From positions 4,320,001 through 4,384,000 of the forward strand of contig CM000150.2 of the NCBI GenBank assembly GCA_000004695.1: a stretch of DNA of 64,000 nucleotides, in the 5' to 3' direction. This document shows positions 18,908 through 55,991 of the stretch, one piece after another (positions within the stretch are counted from its first letter, which is position 1; every line of letters begins with the position of its first letter). Below the pieces are notes generated by a model, which saw only the letters and a program-made list of their open reading frames with translations, was not told the DNA's origin and searched no databases. The DNA is from Dictyostelium discoideum (lineage: Eukaryota). The position numbers and the translations under genes were made by a program.

Positions 18908-18981
18908 GTTCGGATGGTGTAGTCGGTTATCACGAATCCTTAACACGGATTAGGTCGTGGGTTCGATTCCCGCTCTGAATA
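18908..18981 (+). tRNA. tRNA-Val (anticodon AAC)
   Basis: Cloverleaf readable. Acceptor GTTCGGA/TCTGAAT with two G-U pairs. Anticodon stem AATCC/GGATT with loop TTAACAC. T-arm GTGGG TTCGATT CCCGC (B box GGTTCGATTCC). Discriminator A. T5 Pol III terminator at 18993..18997. Confidence 0.85.
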
Positions 18982-28829: not shown

Positions 28830-29738
28830 TAATAATGTAACGATAATAACAATAATAATGATAATAATATTTTAAAATATTATATATCTTACATTTACTA
28901 AAAACTTTTCAATTGATAAAATATCAGAGAAATTAAAATCATTAATATTTTCAACGAATTTAATTAAAGGTGTTGAAGTATTTAAATTGTATAAACCTAT
29001 TCTTGTTGAATAAGTTATTAAACCAAATAATGCGTTATTTGGTAATGCATGTATCAATGCTTCTAATCCTTGTGTGATTGCATCATGTTGTTCTTCATTA
29101 CCTGAATAATCTACAACTGCAATATAAATTGGATTATTTATCAATGGTATCATTGAATATGGTATTGAATCTGGTAATGATGATGACGATGATGATTCTT
29201 GTTGAGTATTATCATAATCACCACCACCACCACTACTACTACCATCAAATTGGTCTTGATCAACTAATAATTCAATTGAATAATTTGATAATTCTGGTAA
29301 TGATTCTCTATTTGGTCTTGCATATCTTGATATTTGTTGTTGTTGTTGTTGTTGATTGTATTGGTTATTATTATAATTATCATTATCACTATCATTATCA
29401 TTATCATTATCAATATTAAAACCTGTATAATTTATCTTATTTAATGATTCACATATATTACATCTCCAACCACCACGTTCAAATTTCACTAAATTATTTA
29501 TATAAGCAAAACATTTTTTACATCTACCTATGTTTTTTGAATTTTCTTGATACCTAAAATTGTTTTTAAATGGTTGAATTACACATCCAAATATTGATCC
29601 TGATCCCTCTTTTACCTCTACTATAAATTAAATTGTTTTTTTTTCTATTAGTAACTTTTGAAACTATATTGTTATTATATTGTACCATTTATATTTACAA
29701 TTAACAGGGAATCTTTGAGAGGAGAATCTAACATTCAT
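26844..29738 (-). CDS. Sec23/Sec24-family COPII coat protein, Sec23-like divergent paralogue; at least 7 exons. 5' exon c(29699..29738); Zn-finger/trunk exon c(28893..29620); later exons only approximately mapped
   Basis: N-terminus MNVRFSSQRFPVN|LEVKEGSGSIFGCVIQPF. Zn finger RCKKCFAYINNLVKFERGGWRCNICESLN. Trunk IYIAVVDYSGNEE...LPNNALFGLITYSTRIGLYNL (compare Sec23 LPPNALIGLITYG). Further trunk FYRKLAERAIEVGAHFDIFAVGDKFFGFDSIKFLSTITGGQIYRY. Beta-sandwich exon RYKLISYGWGFHGLLRIRTSKQFSVDCSYGP. Gelsolin-like C-terminus TSHIYLVDSFDQLVVFYNL (compare Sec23 ILLLDTFFHILIYHG). A D/N/Q low-complexity insert follows the Zn finger. Confidence 0.65.
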
Positions 29739-30289
29739 CAGATTTTTATCTTATTAAACAGTGCACAAACACTTCAATTAAATTTAAAATTTAAAATTAA
29801 AAAAAAAAAAAAAAAAAAAAAATTTCATTTTTTTTTTTTTTTTTTTTTTTTAATATTACAAAAATTAAATCATAATATTTAATTTTAAAATAAATATTTA
29901 TTTGGTATTAAAAATTGAAATAATGGTTCCAAAATAAATTTTAATATTATAACTTTAAAAGACTTATTTATTTATTTGTGTTTGGGGAAAATAAAAAAAA
30001 AAAAAAAAAAAAAAAAAATGAAAATAAATAATATTAACTGTATAATTTTTTTATTCTTTTTTAATTTTATCTTAAATGTAATAAACTCAATATTTCTTTT
30101 AAACTTTTATTTTATTTTATTATTTTAAAAAAAAAAATTAATATCTTTTCCTTTTATCATTTCAATAAATTAGAATTTAGCCCTTTTTTAAATATTCAAT
30201 TTTCAAAGGTTATAAATATATTGTATATAATTTCAAAGAAATTATCAATAACATCAAATGACCAATAACAATAAAGTCAAGTTAAAAAA

Positions 30290-30320
<31 letters not shown>

Positions 30321-30713
30321 CTCTATATTTTTTAAATTAATTATAAAAGCCAGATATCGAATACAATTAAACTCCAAATTAATAAAAAAAGAATCTTTCG
30401 ATTCTAAAAAATCGATTAACCTTATAATCACTATAGATATTTAAAATAAAATTAAATACCTAGCAAAGATTTGTGAAATTTATTTTCAACTTGCACCAAA
30501 TTGTCAAAGATTGGATTTTTTTTTTTTTTTTTTTTTTTTTATAAAATATATTATTTTATTTTGAAATATTAAAATATTAATAAAAAAAAAATAAAAAAAA
30601 AGAAAAAAATCAAAAAGTATGGATTTTTTTTTTTATTAATTATATTTTACTAATACATAAAAAAACCAATTTAATTTTATTACATTTTAATTCAAATAAT
30701 AAACAAAAAAAAA

Positions 30714-30986
30714 ATGGCCAAATGTGAAGCTTGTGGTGGTATTGCATCTGTTACTTGTGGTGTAACTGGTTGTGGAAATAAAGGATGTCTTAATTGTCCA
30801 TATATGACAGCAGTTTCAAGATTTACAAATACTTTCAATGCAAGAAATGTTACAAATACAATTAATCGTAATTCTCCATTCGGTGCAAACATGTCAAATA
30901 CTATGTTTGAATGTGGCGATTGTAGAAATGCTTCCAACACCTCTTCTTCCAACAACTCCACTTCATCTTCTTCTGATGACTCTTAA
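30714..30986 (+). CDS. Small Cys-rich protein, 90 aa, copy 1 of a tandem pair
   Basis: ORF with locally raised GC and ATG in good context. Eight Cys arranged CxxC-x7-C-x4-C-x4-C-x2-C ... CxxC. The Ser/Asn tail ends in acidic residues. It is 85-90 % identical to the copy at 32624..32878. The antisense ORF 30692..30961 is an artefact. Confidence 0.5.
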   Translation: MAKCEACGGIASVTCGVTGCGNKGCLNCPYMTAVSRFTNTFNARNVTNTINRNSPFGANMSNTMFECGDCRNASNTSSSNNSTSSSSDDS

Positions 30987-31275
30987 TAAAATAATAAATT
31001 AAACTCCAAATAATTCCATATTAATAAAAAATAAAACTAACTTGGTTATACTATTTAAAAAATTAACAAAAAAAAAAAAAAAATTTAAAAAAAAAATAAA
31101 CAAAAACTAGAATTTTTTATTAAAATTAATAATGTTTTTGGAAATAAATTAATACTTTTATTTATAAAGCAATAAAAAAAAAATGAAAAGGTTTTTATTT
31201 TTTCATTTTTTTTTTATTTTTTTTTTTTAATTTTTATTTTTTTATTTTTTTTTTTTTTCCCTAATAGCGCCACTT

Positions 31276-31365
31276 GGTGGTGCAACGTTGCGATATTCAT
31301 TAAATTTTGACTCTAAAACGATTTCTTTGAAAATTAATATCGCAACGTTGCACCAAAACAAAAAA
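31276..31365. repeat. Perfect 20-bp inverted repeat (TGGTGCAACGTTGCGATATT ... AATATCGCAACGTTGCACCA) with about 47-bp spacer; predicted long hairpin about 290 bp downstream of Cys-rich gene copy 1
   Basis: Seen directly. The arms are exact reverse complements. The GC content is unusual for the flanking sequence. Each arm contains a palindromic AACGTT core. The homologous site in copy 2 (about 33105..33175) keeps only a mutated left arm. Confidence 0.7.
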
Positions 31366-32623
31366 TCTCCATTGATTTCCAAAATAATTATTTTAATTTT
31401 TTTTTTTTTTTTTTTTTTTAATTTAATTGGTGGGTATTATTGGTTGGTTCAATTTCAATTAAAAAAACACTAAAAACTAAGAAAAAAAAAAGGCACCTAT
31501 TAGTGAATGATTTTATTTTATTTTTTTATTTTTAGCTTTGTAGTTTTTTAAATTTATTAATATTACCTTATAATTTCTTAATATTAGCGGAATCATTTTA
31601 CAGGATTAAAACAACTTTTTTTTTTTGTTTTAATTTTATTTAATTTTTTAAATTTGTTGAACTTGAGGGATAAATACATCGGTCCCTCTTTGAAATACTT
31701 GACGATCATGCGAACGAAGAACATCACTATCTCTTTGAGAATCTTCTTTCCAAGCTTCAAATATTTAGTCTACAAAATATTTAAATAATATTTATTCCAC
31801 CATTGTATATATTTTTGTTACCCCTTTTTTTTTTTTTTATTTTTATACACAATTGCAGGGATGTGTATTCATGATAAATTTAATTTTTCAAAAAGAAGGA
31901 AGTTGTAGATCATTTGCTGTTATTCGTGAACTCATAACCGGTCAAAAATAATAAAAATCTTTTAAAAAGGAAGAAATAATATTTTTATTTATATTTTCAA
32001 ACTTTTTTTTTTTTTTTTTTTTTGGTTTTGTTTTTTGTTTTATTTATAATAATTTTTAATTTTTACATTGATTTTGACCCACATATATAATGTTCACTAT
32101 GATTTTGAGAAAAATTAATATCTTTTCCAGTAATCAATTCAATAAAATAAAATTTAGACCTTTTCCAAATATTCAATTTTCAAAGAAATTATCATTGACA
32201 TCAGATGACCAATCACAATAAATTCATCAAAAAAACCCATTTTTTTTTTTTTTTTTTTTTTTATAAAAGCCAGATATCGATTCCAATTAAACTCCACATA
32301 AAAAAAAAATTTGTTGATTCTAAAAAAAAATGATTAACTTAACTTATAATCACTAAAGATATTTTATATATATAAAAATAAATTAAATACCTATCTAAGA
32401 TTTATGAAATTTATTTTCAATTTGCACCAAATCGCCAAAGAATGGATTTTTTTTTTTTTTTTTTTATTTTGAAATAATAAAATATTAATAAAAAAAAAAA
32501 AAAAACAACAAAATCAAAAAGTATAAATAACTGGATTTTTTTTAAATTTTTTATATTTTACTTATACTTTTATAAATTAATTTAATTTTATTACATTTTA
32601 ATTCAAATAATAAGCAAAAAAAA

Positions 32624-32878
32624 ATGGCCAATTGTGAAGGTTGTGGTGGTACTGCCTCTGTTACTTGTGGTGTAACTGGTTGTGGAAATAAAGGATGTCT
32701 TGGGGCTGATTGTTCATTCATGACAGCTGTTTCAAGATTTACAAATACTTTCAATGCAAGAAATGTTACAAATACAATTAATCGTAATTCTCCATTCGGT
32801 GCAAACATGTCAAATACTATGTTTGAATGCAGTGATTGTAGAAATGCCAACTCTTCTTCATCTTCTGAAGACTCATAA
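32624..32878 (+). CDS. Small Cys-rich protein, 84 aa, copy 2 of the tandem pair
   Basis: Paralogue of 30714..30986 (MANCEGCGGTASVTCGVTGCGNKGCL...TAVSRFTNTFNARNVTNTINRNSPFGANMSNTMFEC). About 400 bp of upstream and 300 bp of downstream flank are conserved. Confidence 0.5.
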   Translation: MANCEGCGGTASVTCGVTGCGNKGCLGADCSFMTAVSRFTNTFNARNVTNTINRNSPFGANMSNTMFECSDCRNANSSSSSEDS

Positions 32879-33247
32879 AAATATTAAACTTCAAATAATA
32901 ATTCCATATTCACAAGAAATAAAACTAACTTGGTTATACTATTTAAAAAATTAATTAATATTAATTAATAAAAAAAATAAAAATAAACAAGAAGTAGAAT
33001 TTTTTATTAAAATTAATTTTTAATTATGTTTTTGGAAATAAATTAATACTTTTATTTATAAAGAAATAATTTTTTTTATTTTTATTTTTAATTCCTTAAT
33101 ATCGCCCCACTTGGTGGTAAAACATTGCGATATTCATTAAATTTTGACTAAAACGATTTCTTTGAAAATTATTGTTTCTTTTTTTTTTTTATTTAAATAA
33201 ACAATAAAAAAAACTTCTTGTCAAATCTAGATTGATTTCCAAAAAAA

Positions 33248-33294
<47 letters not shown>

Positions 33295-34336
33295 ATTGAT
33301 GGATATTATTTGTTCAATTTCAATTAAAAAATACTAAACCCTAAAAAAAAAAAAAAAAAAAGCGCCTAATGGTGAAAGATTTTTTATTTTTAGCTTTCTA
33401 GTTTTTTTTTTAAAAATTTAATATTGCCTTATTATTTTTTAATATTAATCACAGATTAAAACAAAATTGTTGATTGTTTCTATGACATTCATCATAATAT
33501 TTATTATTGATTATTTGAATTTGAAAATCACAGTTGATTACCTAAAATTATTTAATTCTAATTTCTTTTTTTTTTTTTTTTATTTTTAAATTATTTGTTT
33601 TTTATTATTATTCCATTCTTTTTGTTTTGATACTTACACATTAAGTGAAATTTAGGAATGAAAACAAAAAAAAAAAAAATTAAAAAAAGTATCTTTTCAC
33701 TTTTTTATTTTTTTTTTTTTTTAATTTCACTTTTTTTATTTTTTTTTTATTTTTTATTTTTTTTTTCGTCAATTGAATCTTAATTTTATTTCTTTATTTG
33801 AACAGATTTTAAAAAAAAAAAAAAAAACAAAATAAAAATTTGAAATTTAAATTATAATAATAAAAATTAAAATAAAATTGATTTTCAATTGAAATTAATT
33901 GAAAATAAATCGTATTACAACAACAATAATAAAACCAAATAATATTATAAAAAAAGAAAAAAAAATTAAAAAAAAAATTTAAAAAAAAAAAAAATTAAAA
34001 GAAATAAAAAATAAAAAATAAAAAAATTTTAATATTAATGTTAATGTCACTATTATTTTTATTATTAAATTTGATTTGAATAATAAAAAAAAAAAAAAAA
34101 AAAAAAAATTAAAATAATAAAAATAAATTTTCAAAAAAAAAAAAAAAAACAAAATAAAACAAAAAAAAAAAAAAAATATAAATAAATAAATAAATAAATA
34201 ATATATATATATATAATAATTTAAATGTTACTTTATTATTTTTATTATAACCAATTACTACTATTATTATCATCAAAAATATTAAAAATCTTTTAAAAAG
34301 GTAGAAATTGTAAATATTATTTTTATTTTTAAACTT

Positions 34337-34368
<32 letters not shown>

Positions 34369-34997
34369 TTTTTGTTTTGTTTTTTGTTTTGTTTTTTGTT
34401 TTTTGTTTTATTTATAATATTTTTTAATTTTTACATTTTATTTTAACCCACATATATAATGTTCACTATGATTTAGAGGAAAATGTATAAAAAAAAACTA
34501 TAAAACATACATTATATGTAATTTCTCTCCCACAATTTTCAATGTGTTTTTACATTTTTAAATTTTTAATTTTTTTTGTTTTTTTATTGAAATTGAAATA
34601 AAAGAATAATAGTTATCCACCACTTACCCACCACACATTAACACTAAAAAAAGGTATGTCTTTTTTAAAGACAATGCATAGAGTTTCGGAAATTTTGTTA
34701 AATTATAATTTATTTTAATAAAATTAAATAAAATAGAATTTTTAATGTAAAATAATAAAATTTAAATTGATGTTACTCATAGTATTAAAATTTTTTTTTT
34801 TTTTTTTTTATTTTTATTTTTTTATTTTAATTTATTAATTTTATTTTATTTTTTTTAAACTAAAAAAAATAATAAAAAATAATAAAAATAATTTCAATCT
34901 AAAAAAATTAATTATAATAAATATAAATATTATAATATTATAATATAAATTAATAATAATAATAAAAAAAACTAAAAATGTAAGAATTAATTAATTA

Positions 34998-35053
<56 letters not shown>

Positions 35054-36678: not shown

Positions 36679-38223
36679 ATGATTGATGATTCTTTAGCAA
36701 ATGTTTGGCAATTAATACCAACACGTAGATCACAAATGATCATAAACTATCAACAAGAGGTTATCCATTCTCCAACACCAATTGCCTCAATATCAAATAA
36801 AAATGATACAAATCAACAATTACAACCACAACTACAACCACAACAACCACAACAATTATCACCAAATGTTGATCAACATATGCAATTGGAACAACAATTA
36901 CATTACCAATTACAACAACAAGCTTTACAACAACAACAAGCTTTGCAACAACAACAACAACAACAACAACAAATACAACCATCATCAATTATTTCAACAA
37001 CACAAGAAACAACCGGATTTTTCCCAGTTGAAAGACATGGTCATACAACTTGTTTATATAAAAATAAAGTGATTTTATTTGGTGGTACACCTGATGGTTC
37101 ACATGGTTTAAGTGATTTATATTTTCTTTATTTAGGTAATTATTTTTATAATTATTTAAAAAAATAATTTATAAAATTTAAAATTATTAATTTATTTTTT
37201 ATTTTTTATTGATTTTTTGAAGATACATATTCTTGGGTTGAAATTAAAACAAAAGGAAATGCACCAAATGGTAGATATAGACATAGTGCAATTATAATAG
37301 AAGATAAAATGTATATATTCGGAGGATATAGGTCAAAATGTTTAAATGATTTACATGTATTAGATTTAGAGACATTTACATGGTCAGAACCAATTTGTAT
37401 TGGAGAAGCACCATCGGCACGTTCATCACATTCAGTTTGTTGTGTTGGAAAGATGATGATATTATTTGGAGGTAGTGGAGCACGTTACTCTAATGAATTG
37501 TTTTCATTGGACACTGTTACGATGCGTTGGACTAAACATGATGTATTGGGAACACCTCCCTCAGAGAGATGGTGTCATACAATGTGCAGTTTCGGTAAGA
37601 AGGTGGTTACATTTGGTGGCTCAAACGATAAGAGAAAAGATAATAAAGTTTATATATTGGATACCGATACGATGGAATGGTCGCAACCTCCCACCTCTGG
37701 AAACTGTCCAATACCCAGACAGTTGCATACTGCAGTGGCAATCGGCGAGAGTATGATCGTTTTCGGAGGCTGGGGTAAACATCAGGAATTGAATGACCTC
37801 TACATACTCAATACTCGTACTATGAAATGGGTTTGTCCAAAGATTGACAATGTCATACCTTGTTGTCGTCAACTTCATTCCGCTTGGGTATACAATGGTA
37901 AAATGTATACTTTGGGTGGCTATTTTAAAAACAAAAGAATGATCGATGTTTATTGTTTCACACCCGAACAAACCGTTTCAACTCTACGTGAATTTTGTAT
38001 TGAAACCATTGTCGAAGATGTTTTCAAATATGTACCAATGTTTAATCATTTCCCAGAGGAAATACTATATCAAATTTTCTCAAGATTATCTCAAGCTGGA
38101 AAATTAATACCACTTCAATTGGATTATTTAATTAGAAAATCTTATTTAGCCGACCAAGTTGCTTTAGTTTTATCTACCAATAAGAATGGTGGTACAATTG
38201 AAGAAACTCCAAATCCAATTTAA
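36679..38223 (+). CDS. Kelch-repeat (6-blade beta-propeller) protein with Gln-rich N-terminus and C-terminal helical region; exons 36679..37135, 37223..38223
   Basis: Donor TTAG|GTAATT (phase 1); acceptor ttttgaag|AT. Kelch blades: HGHTTCLYKNKVILFGG, RYRHSAIIIEDKMYIFGG, RSSHSVCCVGKMMILFGG, RWCHTMCSFGKKVVTFGG, RQLHTAVAIGESMIVFGG, RQLHSAWVYNGKMYTLGG. The segment 37460..37980 has GC far above the rest of the gene. Confidence 0.75.
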
Positions 38224-54821: not shown

Positions 54822-55991
54822 GGATATTCATTGTAATTATTTTAATTTAATTATTCTAATTTAAAATTCTAATAGAATTGTTGGTACCCATCACCAGTAA
54901 GAAGAGAGTAGGTGACAGTGGATCACTTGTTTTACTCCTGTCACTACAATAGTTTGTTTCATCTATTAAAAATCTTCATGTTACGAGTCCTTTCTGATTA
55001 TTGTTAACAATTTTTGGGAGATAGGATATTAGTTTATTATTGCTTTAGATTGGATTTTGTATATACAGTTTGCCAAAGTCATCGGCTTCCGATTTTAAAT
55101 TGATTCTTTGGAATTGTGATAATCAGCCCTTCTTTATATTGGTTTTTAATGATAAGTGGATTCTTTATTGCATCATTGAAAGTTGATGCATGAACTTTGT
55201 TGTTGTAAATAGATTGCTCCTAAGGTATTTTCCCAGAGGAAGACCATTGGTATGATGCAATGGTCCATTGAGTCAACAAATTGGATGATTTAGAAATGCA
55301 CAAGAAAAATAAAAGAATTTAAAAAATGGACAGTTGACGAAGGTTTTCTTTGAATGTAAGGAAATGTGAGAATTGCTGTAAGGTCAACTTATTTGTTATT
55401 CACATCTACAAATTATATATAAAATAATTTTAAAAGGAAATTATAATTTAAAAAAAACTTTATGGGATTTTATTTCTTAACCATTTTCCCCTTAATCTCA
55501 AAAAAAAAAATAAAATTTTTTTTTTTTATTCTTTGAAATTTATTTCTCAAATATTTATTAGAAAACAGATTAACATAACAAAAACATGATAGATTTAATC
55601 TATGCAAAACATGGGTTAAAAATCTAAATTTAGTAAAATAAAAATTTTTAAAATAAAAAAGTATGAAAAAATGGGAAGTTTTTAAAATTCTTAAAACCAT
55701 AAACTCAAACCTAAAATCTCAAATGTCTTTTTTTATTACCTAATTAAAAAAAAAAAAAATTTCTTATTGTAAATAATGAAACTAATATTAAGTTAAAAAT
55801 TAATATTTTATATTTGAGCAATTTATTTTTTAAAAAAAAAAAAAATTTAAAAATATTTTTAATTATTAATTATTAATTATTATTATTATTAATTATTAAT
55901 TATTGATTATTAATTATTAATTATTATTAATTATTATTAATTATTATTAATTATTTATTATTTATTAATTATTAATTTTTTTTTTTTTTTT

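Follow-up and report, generated by a model that had tools for sequence, protein, structure and literature searches.

A perfect 20-bp hairpin between tandem orphan genes of Dictyostelium discoideum as a possible young by-product of template switching

Template switching, in which a nascent strand may fold on itself or jump to the other strand, has been described in models of Ripley-type quasi-palindrome correction and in the four-point model of Löytynoja and Mönttinen, and such events have been proposed as a source from which animals gain new miRNA genes. In mammals, template-switch mutations have been recognised as inverted fragments that are 15 nt or longer, share 80% identity or more with their source, differ from the parent by at least five mismatches and are not of low complexity, and the hairpins classed there as 'miRNA-like' need a stem of 30-55 nt (PMC10710096). 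In D. discoideum, according to two studies (PMC6161686 and PMC11014262), miRNA precursors are mostly intergenic hairpins that depend on DrnB and RbdB. Amoebozoan pre-miRNAs are typically 75-125 nt in size, and Dictyostelium miRNAs are called on a folding energy below -0.2 kcal/mol/nt together with at least 10 reads per arm that share a 5' end, a 3' overhang of 2 nt and dependence on DrnB. The locus described here, a perfect 20-bp hairpin-forming inverted repeat in AT-rich spacer DNA between two tandem orphan genes on chromosome 1 of D. discoideum AX4, resembles template-switch mutations (PMC10710096) in that 19-20 nt appear to be replaced by an exact reverse complement from ~40 nt away, with a cluster that is unalignable with the nearest relative, microhomology at the switch point and a stem that would have been perfect at once. 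However, the parent state was given there by a phylogeny with outgroups, whereas here it is represented by a paralogous tandem copy; furthermore, the host is an amoebozoan of about 78% AT, and the stem is 20 bp instead of 30-55 nt.

The inverted repeat was examined within the window, that is, the whole 64-kb stretch of DNA analysed. Its left arm, TGGTGCAACGTTGCGATATT, lies at 31278-31297 (+), and its right arm, AATATCGCAACGTTGCACCA, lies at 31336-31355 (+) and reproduces the left arm in reverse complement with 0 mismatches, as had been quoted in the original prediction; however, the spacer given there as 47 bp measures 38 nt (31298-31335, +). The whole element is thus 78 nt, and the range 31276-31365 first assigned to it gave the right location but padded the element. 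The loop is AT-rich, the right arm contains 9 G/C in 20 nt, and the GC content over 31259-31355 is 38% compared to 9% and 16% in the flanks, in agreement with the earlier remark that local GC exceeds that of the AT-rich surroundings. The AACGTT hexamer noted earlier is indeed present in each arm, where it sits inside a 10-bp perfect palindrome, GCAACGTTGC, which reads alike on both strands; this palindrome occupies 31282-31291 in the left arm and 31342-31351 in the right arm, 60 bp apart from centre to centre. Larger terminal repeats, CNCTAATAG at 31259 and 31496, were considered and rejected, being 9 bp long, AT-rich and at chance level.

The repeat is exceptional for its surroundings. Perfect inverted repeats 12 nt or longer number 1235 in the 64-kb window, and nearly all of them are composed of A/T only; when at least four G/C in the arm and a loop of at most 150 nt were required, only the 20-bp repeat and one 12-mer were left. 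The longest G/C-containing inverted repeat in 200 block shuffles was 16 nt, with a mean of 0.1 such repeats per window, and the 20-mer was expected 0.00 times (100 shuffles). Likewise, both occurrences of CAACGTTG in the 64-kb window lie in the two arms, against 0.15 expected. These data indicate that the 20-bp repeat is real and far beyond chance for AT-rich DNA. RNA folding, which had been proposed along with the original prediction, confirmed a strong hairpin at -36 kcal/mol on the forward strand (z -6.2) and -39.8 kcal/mol on the reverse strand (z -4.9), and the DNA fold of the region reached -25.1 kcal/mol (z -7.5). Over the 78 nt the fold amounts to about -33 kcal/mol, or -0.42 kcal/mol/nt, and in a sliding 100-nt fold scan of both strands across the 64 kb the hairpin was the most stable structure on either strand. 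Next in stability among the 100-nt folds of the window, at about -32 and -33 kcal/mol, were 29161-29260 (-), within an ORF whose product is codon-repeat-rich (Asp/Asn, His/Tyr), and 37681-37780 (+), in a stretch of 53% GC.

The genes on either side of the hairpin are a Cys-rich orphan pair, copy 1 being DDB_G0270164 (90 aa; 30714-30986, +; 100% identical) and copy 2 being DDB_G0270166 (84 aa; 32624-32878, +; 88% identical). Both carry CxxC and CGxxGC motifs and a Ser-rich tail; no Pfam domain was found in the pair above threshold, and no further family members were found among 5.8 billion proteins. Look-ups by exact protein returned no record in a further assembly or transcript contig for the two Cys-rich proteins, nor for the two ORFs that overlap the hairpin, and full-text literature searches gave no mention of the gene IDs or the arm sequences. 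There are no annotated genes between the two paralogues. A coding exon running through the hairpin was considered and rejected, as the 46-aa minus-strand ORF in question is broken by a 2-nt indel in copy 2. The hairpin does lie downstream of copy 1, as originally described, with the stop codon 292 nt before the left arm; this stop codon directly precedes AATAAA motifs. Because the element is ~290 nt past the stop codon and these signals follow immediately, it probably falls outside the mature mRNA.

The two genes belong to a tandem duplication, in which unit 1 (30133-31586, +) has its counterpart in unit 2 (32110-33447). BLAST matched the units in three blocks, i.e., 30341-31175 with 32261-33069 (81.5% identical including indels), 31237-31336 with 33071-33171 (88% identical) and 31388-31586 with 33257-33447 (80% identical). 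At well-aligned non-coding sites the units differ at 53 of 641 positions (8.3%), and change at G/C sites is several times faster than at A/T sites, reaching roughly 12% per lineage at G/C. A segment located 5' of unit 2 (31942-32120; ...aaaatcttttaaaaagg...cccacatatataatgttcactatgatt) is repeated ~2.3 kb downstream at 34273-34489, with a core that is 91% identical (32003-32109 compared to 34369-34478); since no third Cys-rich gene follows it, this repeated segment is the remnant of a longer tandem array.

Comparison of the two units at the hairpin revealed that the left arm and the whole spacer lie inside the duplicated unit and are 88-89% identical to copy 2, the spacer being common to both copies except for a 2-nt indel, whereas the right arm lies outside the homology shared by the units. 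The GC-rich block has its homologue at 33098-33134 (+) in copy 2, where TGGTAAAACATTGCGATATT at 33115-33134 corresponds to the left arm with three mismatches (17/20). The homology detected by BLAST stops at 31336/33171, where the right arm has its first base. The 24 nt immediately before 31336 are identical between the units (24/24); homology restarts at or directly after AAACAA, past the right arm. In place of the right arm, copy 2 carries a specific 27-nt T-rich segment (33172-33198, +) with no similarity to it, and the 19 nt that are specific to copy 1, ATATCGCAACGTTGCACCA (31337-31355), are a 100% reverse complement of 31278-31296. Furthermore, when all poorly aligned blocks of the 1.5-kb unit were scanned, 31337-31355 alone had a complex inverted copy nearby, the other matches being homopolymers. 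The original prediction was right that copy 2 lacks the hairpin; however, its description of the hairpin as decayed in copy 2 holds for the left-arm palindrome, which shows three GC-to-AT changes, and not for the right arm, of which copy 2 has no trace. Because the homology breaks exactly at the arm boundary and no trace of a right arm exists in copy 2, gain in copy 1 is favoured over loss in copy 2, a direction of change that we infer from the paralogue.

The left arm itself is an older constituent of the duplicated unit and the presumed template of the inverted copy. Its three differences from copy 2, at 31282, 31283 and 31287, are all G/C in copy 1 and A/T in copy 2, and all of them fall within GCAACGTTGC, with the 11 nt upstream and the 19 nt downstream of the palindrome being identical. 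Because mutation is AT-biased, the palindrome was probably ancestral and decayed in copy 2. Conservation of the GC-rich block (35-37/40) is not above that of other complex non-coding segments of the unit (34-38/40), so that special constraint on the left arm or loop is not supported. Copy 2 also contains an 8-bp inverted repeat of its own, in which AATATCGC (33098-33105) is the pairing partner of GCGATATT (33127-33134), which closes the left-arm homologue at its 3' end; the copy-1 homologue of AATATCGC is degraded (AATAGCGC; 31263-31270, +). The paired 8-mer occurs four times in the window, each time at this locus, against 0.37 expected. The different partner of GCGATATT in copy 2 could have come about through template switches that recurred where the sequence is prone to palindromes, or it could have been selected for pairing.

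The reading that we prefer, to which we assign a probability of about one half, is that the hairpin arose in one step as a young by-product of template switching (a fold-back error in DNA replication or repair) in copy 1, after the duplication, and has no dedicated function. An older GC-rich block, consisting of CCACTTGGTGGTGCAACGTTGCGATATT and what is now the AT-rich loop sequence, would already have been present in both units. During synthesis of the forward strand, the nascent 3' end ...AAATTA (31331-31336) would have folded back onto T/CATT (31297-31301), with pairing at four of five bases including the terminal one; extension would then have copied 31296 back to 31278, thereby writing ATATCGCAACGTTGCACCA, and the strand would have rejoined its normal template near AAACAA. 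The inverted copy would in this way have replaced an AT-rich stretch resembling the 27 nt still seen in copy 2. The short pairing on which this scheme depends, AATTA (31332-31336) with TCATT (31297-31301), joins four of five bases, the terminal A-T pair included, and is present in both copies; the microhomology is therefore older than the event.

Judged by the mammalian criteria (PMC10710096) and with copy 2 as proxy for the parent, the right arm qualifies as a template-switch product. The inverted fragment matches at 20 of 20 positions, 19 nt being specific to copy 1, and its source is 38 nt away (17/20 against the copy-2 version of that source); 31337-31355 is without an alignable counterpart in copy 2 and is not a homopolymer. 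Copy 2, a paralogue and the sole comparison, keeps the source sequence and lacks the right arm. The perfect arms fit a young event given the 8.3% divergence of the units at well-aligned non-coding sites: from the divergence rates of the units, a neutral hairpin that predated the duplication is estimated to have had a probability of only about 0.06 of remaining perfect over its 40 nt. Precise loss of an ancestral right arm, with an unrelated 27-nt filler in copy 2, is a more contrived history, because the breakpoints would have to coincide with the arm boundary. However, it should be noted that copy 2 is a paralogue and not an ancestor, and that the right-hand junction falls in low-complexity AAACAAA, its placement being uncertain by up to 7 nt. 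Selection on the hairpin would likewise give perfect complementarity; in addition, the G/C-to-A/T pattern in the palindrome could be constraint in copy 1 with relaxation in copy 2, and the other 8-bp partner for GCGATATT in copy 2 could hint that pairing matters.

Selection of this kind is central to a rather unlikely alternative, namely that the hairpin is an ancestral functional RNA element that predates the duplication, was selected in copy 1 and was lost in copy 2, and that could act as a DrnB-dependent small-RNA precursor or as a hairpin that stabilises or terminates read-through transcripts of DDB_G0270164. The very stable fold, the best in the window, suits such a role, as its energy per nucleotide is well beyond the miRNA threshold, its 78 nt fall within the pre-miRNA size range, and its intergenic position is that of most Dictyostelium miRNA loci; furthermore, the arms are perfect despite the 8% divergence of the units. 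However, the stem is barely one miRNA duplex long and, lacking a basal extension and closed by a large loop of 38 nt, would only just accommodate a 21-nt duplex with overhangs of 2 nt, and the homology break at the arm boundary, with no right-arm trace in copy 2, does not suggest an ancestral arm. The hairpin is also absent from the searched portions of the supplementary miRNA lists of PMC6161686 and PMC11014262, and Rfam gave no match at the hairpin, either at the gathering threshold in a search of the whole window or at E<=5 over 31000-35000. No DUSE, the motif [AT]CCCA[CT]AA expected about 60 nt upstream of class I RNAs and snRNAs, was found within reach of the hairpin on either strand. The same approach recovered, as a positive control, a class I RNA gene of known kind (Rfam RF01414, 54 bits; 55331-55388, -) with a canonical DUSE, TCCCATAA, about 72 nt upstream (55460-55467, -), which, like the tRNA-Val gene of the window, is in keeping with D. 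discoideum. A scan for bacterial-type promoters and terminators, which is irrelevant to a eukaryote, gave nothing. The suggestion of a small structured RNA was thus not borne out, and these results, together with a copy 2 ORF that is intact despite the absence of the hairpin, support the view that the element has no dedicated function. As regards a 3'-end or terminator hairpin, which was also suggested, the poly(A) signals and the position of the element make a place within the mRNA unlikely; if read-through transcripts cross the site, they are predicted to form a very stable RNA hairpin. Much more speculative is a reading in which a proto-miRNA, born by template switching as a 20-bp stem in the read-through region of a recently duplicated orphan gene, is processed by DrnB into small RNAs; the other partner of GCGATATT in copy 2 would then represent repeated structural turnover at one site.

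A protein-binding role of the palindrome, with hairpin formation being irrelevant, has likewise been weighed against the young template switch. ACGT-core palindromes are bound by dimeric factors such as bZIP proteins, and AACGTT is of the 'T-box' type in plant nomenclature. The ancestral dyad in the left arm, a 10-bp perfect palindrome with an ACGT core that now occurs twice, could be a candidate protein-binding site, and GCAACGTTGC would then be a cis-regulatory element of the Cys-rich unit that was doubled by the second copy; to our knowledge, no Dictyostelium factor binds GCAACGTTGC. The presence of a G/C-containing perfect palindrome in a spacer of about 10-15% GC speaks for such a site, as do the restriction of CAACGTTG to the two arms in 64 kb, the retention of the whole GC-rich block in both units, and the confinement of the three differences to the palindrome between identical flanks, as though a discrete element were intact in one copy. 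However, the block is no better conserved than non-coding sequence elsewhere in the unit, the palindrome is lost in the paralogous unit with its ORF still intact, and the second palindrome is fully explained as a passenger of the inverted copy, and we regard this role as improbable. Far less probable still is an origin from a foldback or MITE-like transposon, or from the excision of one, in which the arms would be terminal inverted repeats. Short terminal inverted repeats around a non-coding core are indeed shared with MITEs and thug-type foldback repeats of D. discoideum, the element having perfect ones of 20 bp around a short AT-rich core, 78 bp in total, and thug-S repeats are the source of some Dictyostelium miRNAs; however, its flanks (...CTTGG / AAACA...) are unrelated and show no target-site duplication, no further copy apart from the tandem paralogue was found in 64 kb at word size 9, and one arm is lineage-specific. 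Moreover, because the left arm and the full spacer are kept in copy 2, that copy is not an empty site, and this arrangement would not result if a unit element had inserted or been excised, so that the footprint envisaged in the original prediction finds no support at the locus. In collections without Dictyostelium, the 20-mer had 0 matches in GTDB genomes and one chance match, without an inverted partner, in a GC-rich bacterial metagenome contig. An artefact of cloning or assembly in the reference sequence is just as implausible. Palindromes readily rearrange when cloned in E. coli, and the reference is a shotgun assembly of very AT-rich DNA; however, such errors usually delete palindromes and do not create short perfect ones, the junction microhomology is ordinary, and the flanks are collinear with copy 2.

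Should the hairpin have arisen by template switching, it would be a clean example from a social amoeba of one replication error writing a perfect hairpin into AT-rich spacer DNA, with the tandem paralogue as a built-in 'before' picture of hairpin birth. Dictyostelium miRNAs are mostly young and lineage-specific, and for this reason an example of template switching in this organism would be relevant to miRNA origins. The hairpin is best explained, on the evidence of the two units, as a further instance of an already known mutational mechanism, and the repeat itself may have no sequence-specific function; its value would lie mainly in the mutational footprint and in the caution that it offers against reading function into a striking palindrome.

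Several other features of the window were observed in the course of the analysis. A weak box C/D snoRNA-like match in unit 2 (32187-32236, -; RF00530, 23 bits, E 0.19), in which the UGAUGA and CUGA boxes are only about 20 nt apart, is probably due to chance and was rejected because the corresponding stretch of copy 1 (30231-30290) does not preserve these boxes. A DUSE-like motif, TCCCACAA, at 34528-34535 (+) is followed ~70 nt on by a GC-richer patch at 34600-34690 (ccaccacttacccaccacacatt...), for which Rfam gave no match at E<=5; since such motifs are about as frequent in the window as expected by chance, this one may mean nothing. Between the tandem units, another GC-richer patch at 31593-31925 (-) is readable as a two-exon spliced minus-strand ORF of 66 aa, considered as a convergent gene ending at 31593. 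Its product has a sub-threshold match to DUF5409 (E 0.025), a search of 5.8 billion proteins gave no homologue, and the patch is probably a decayed, unannotated gene remnant. Finally, a tRNA-Val (AAC) gene lies at 18908-18981 (+) and was the only match of the tRNA scan.
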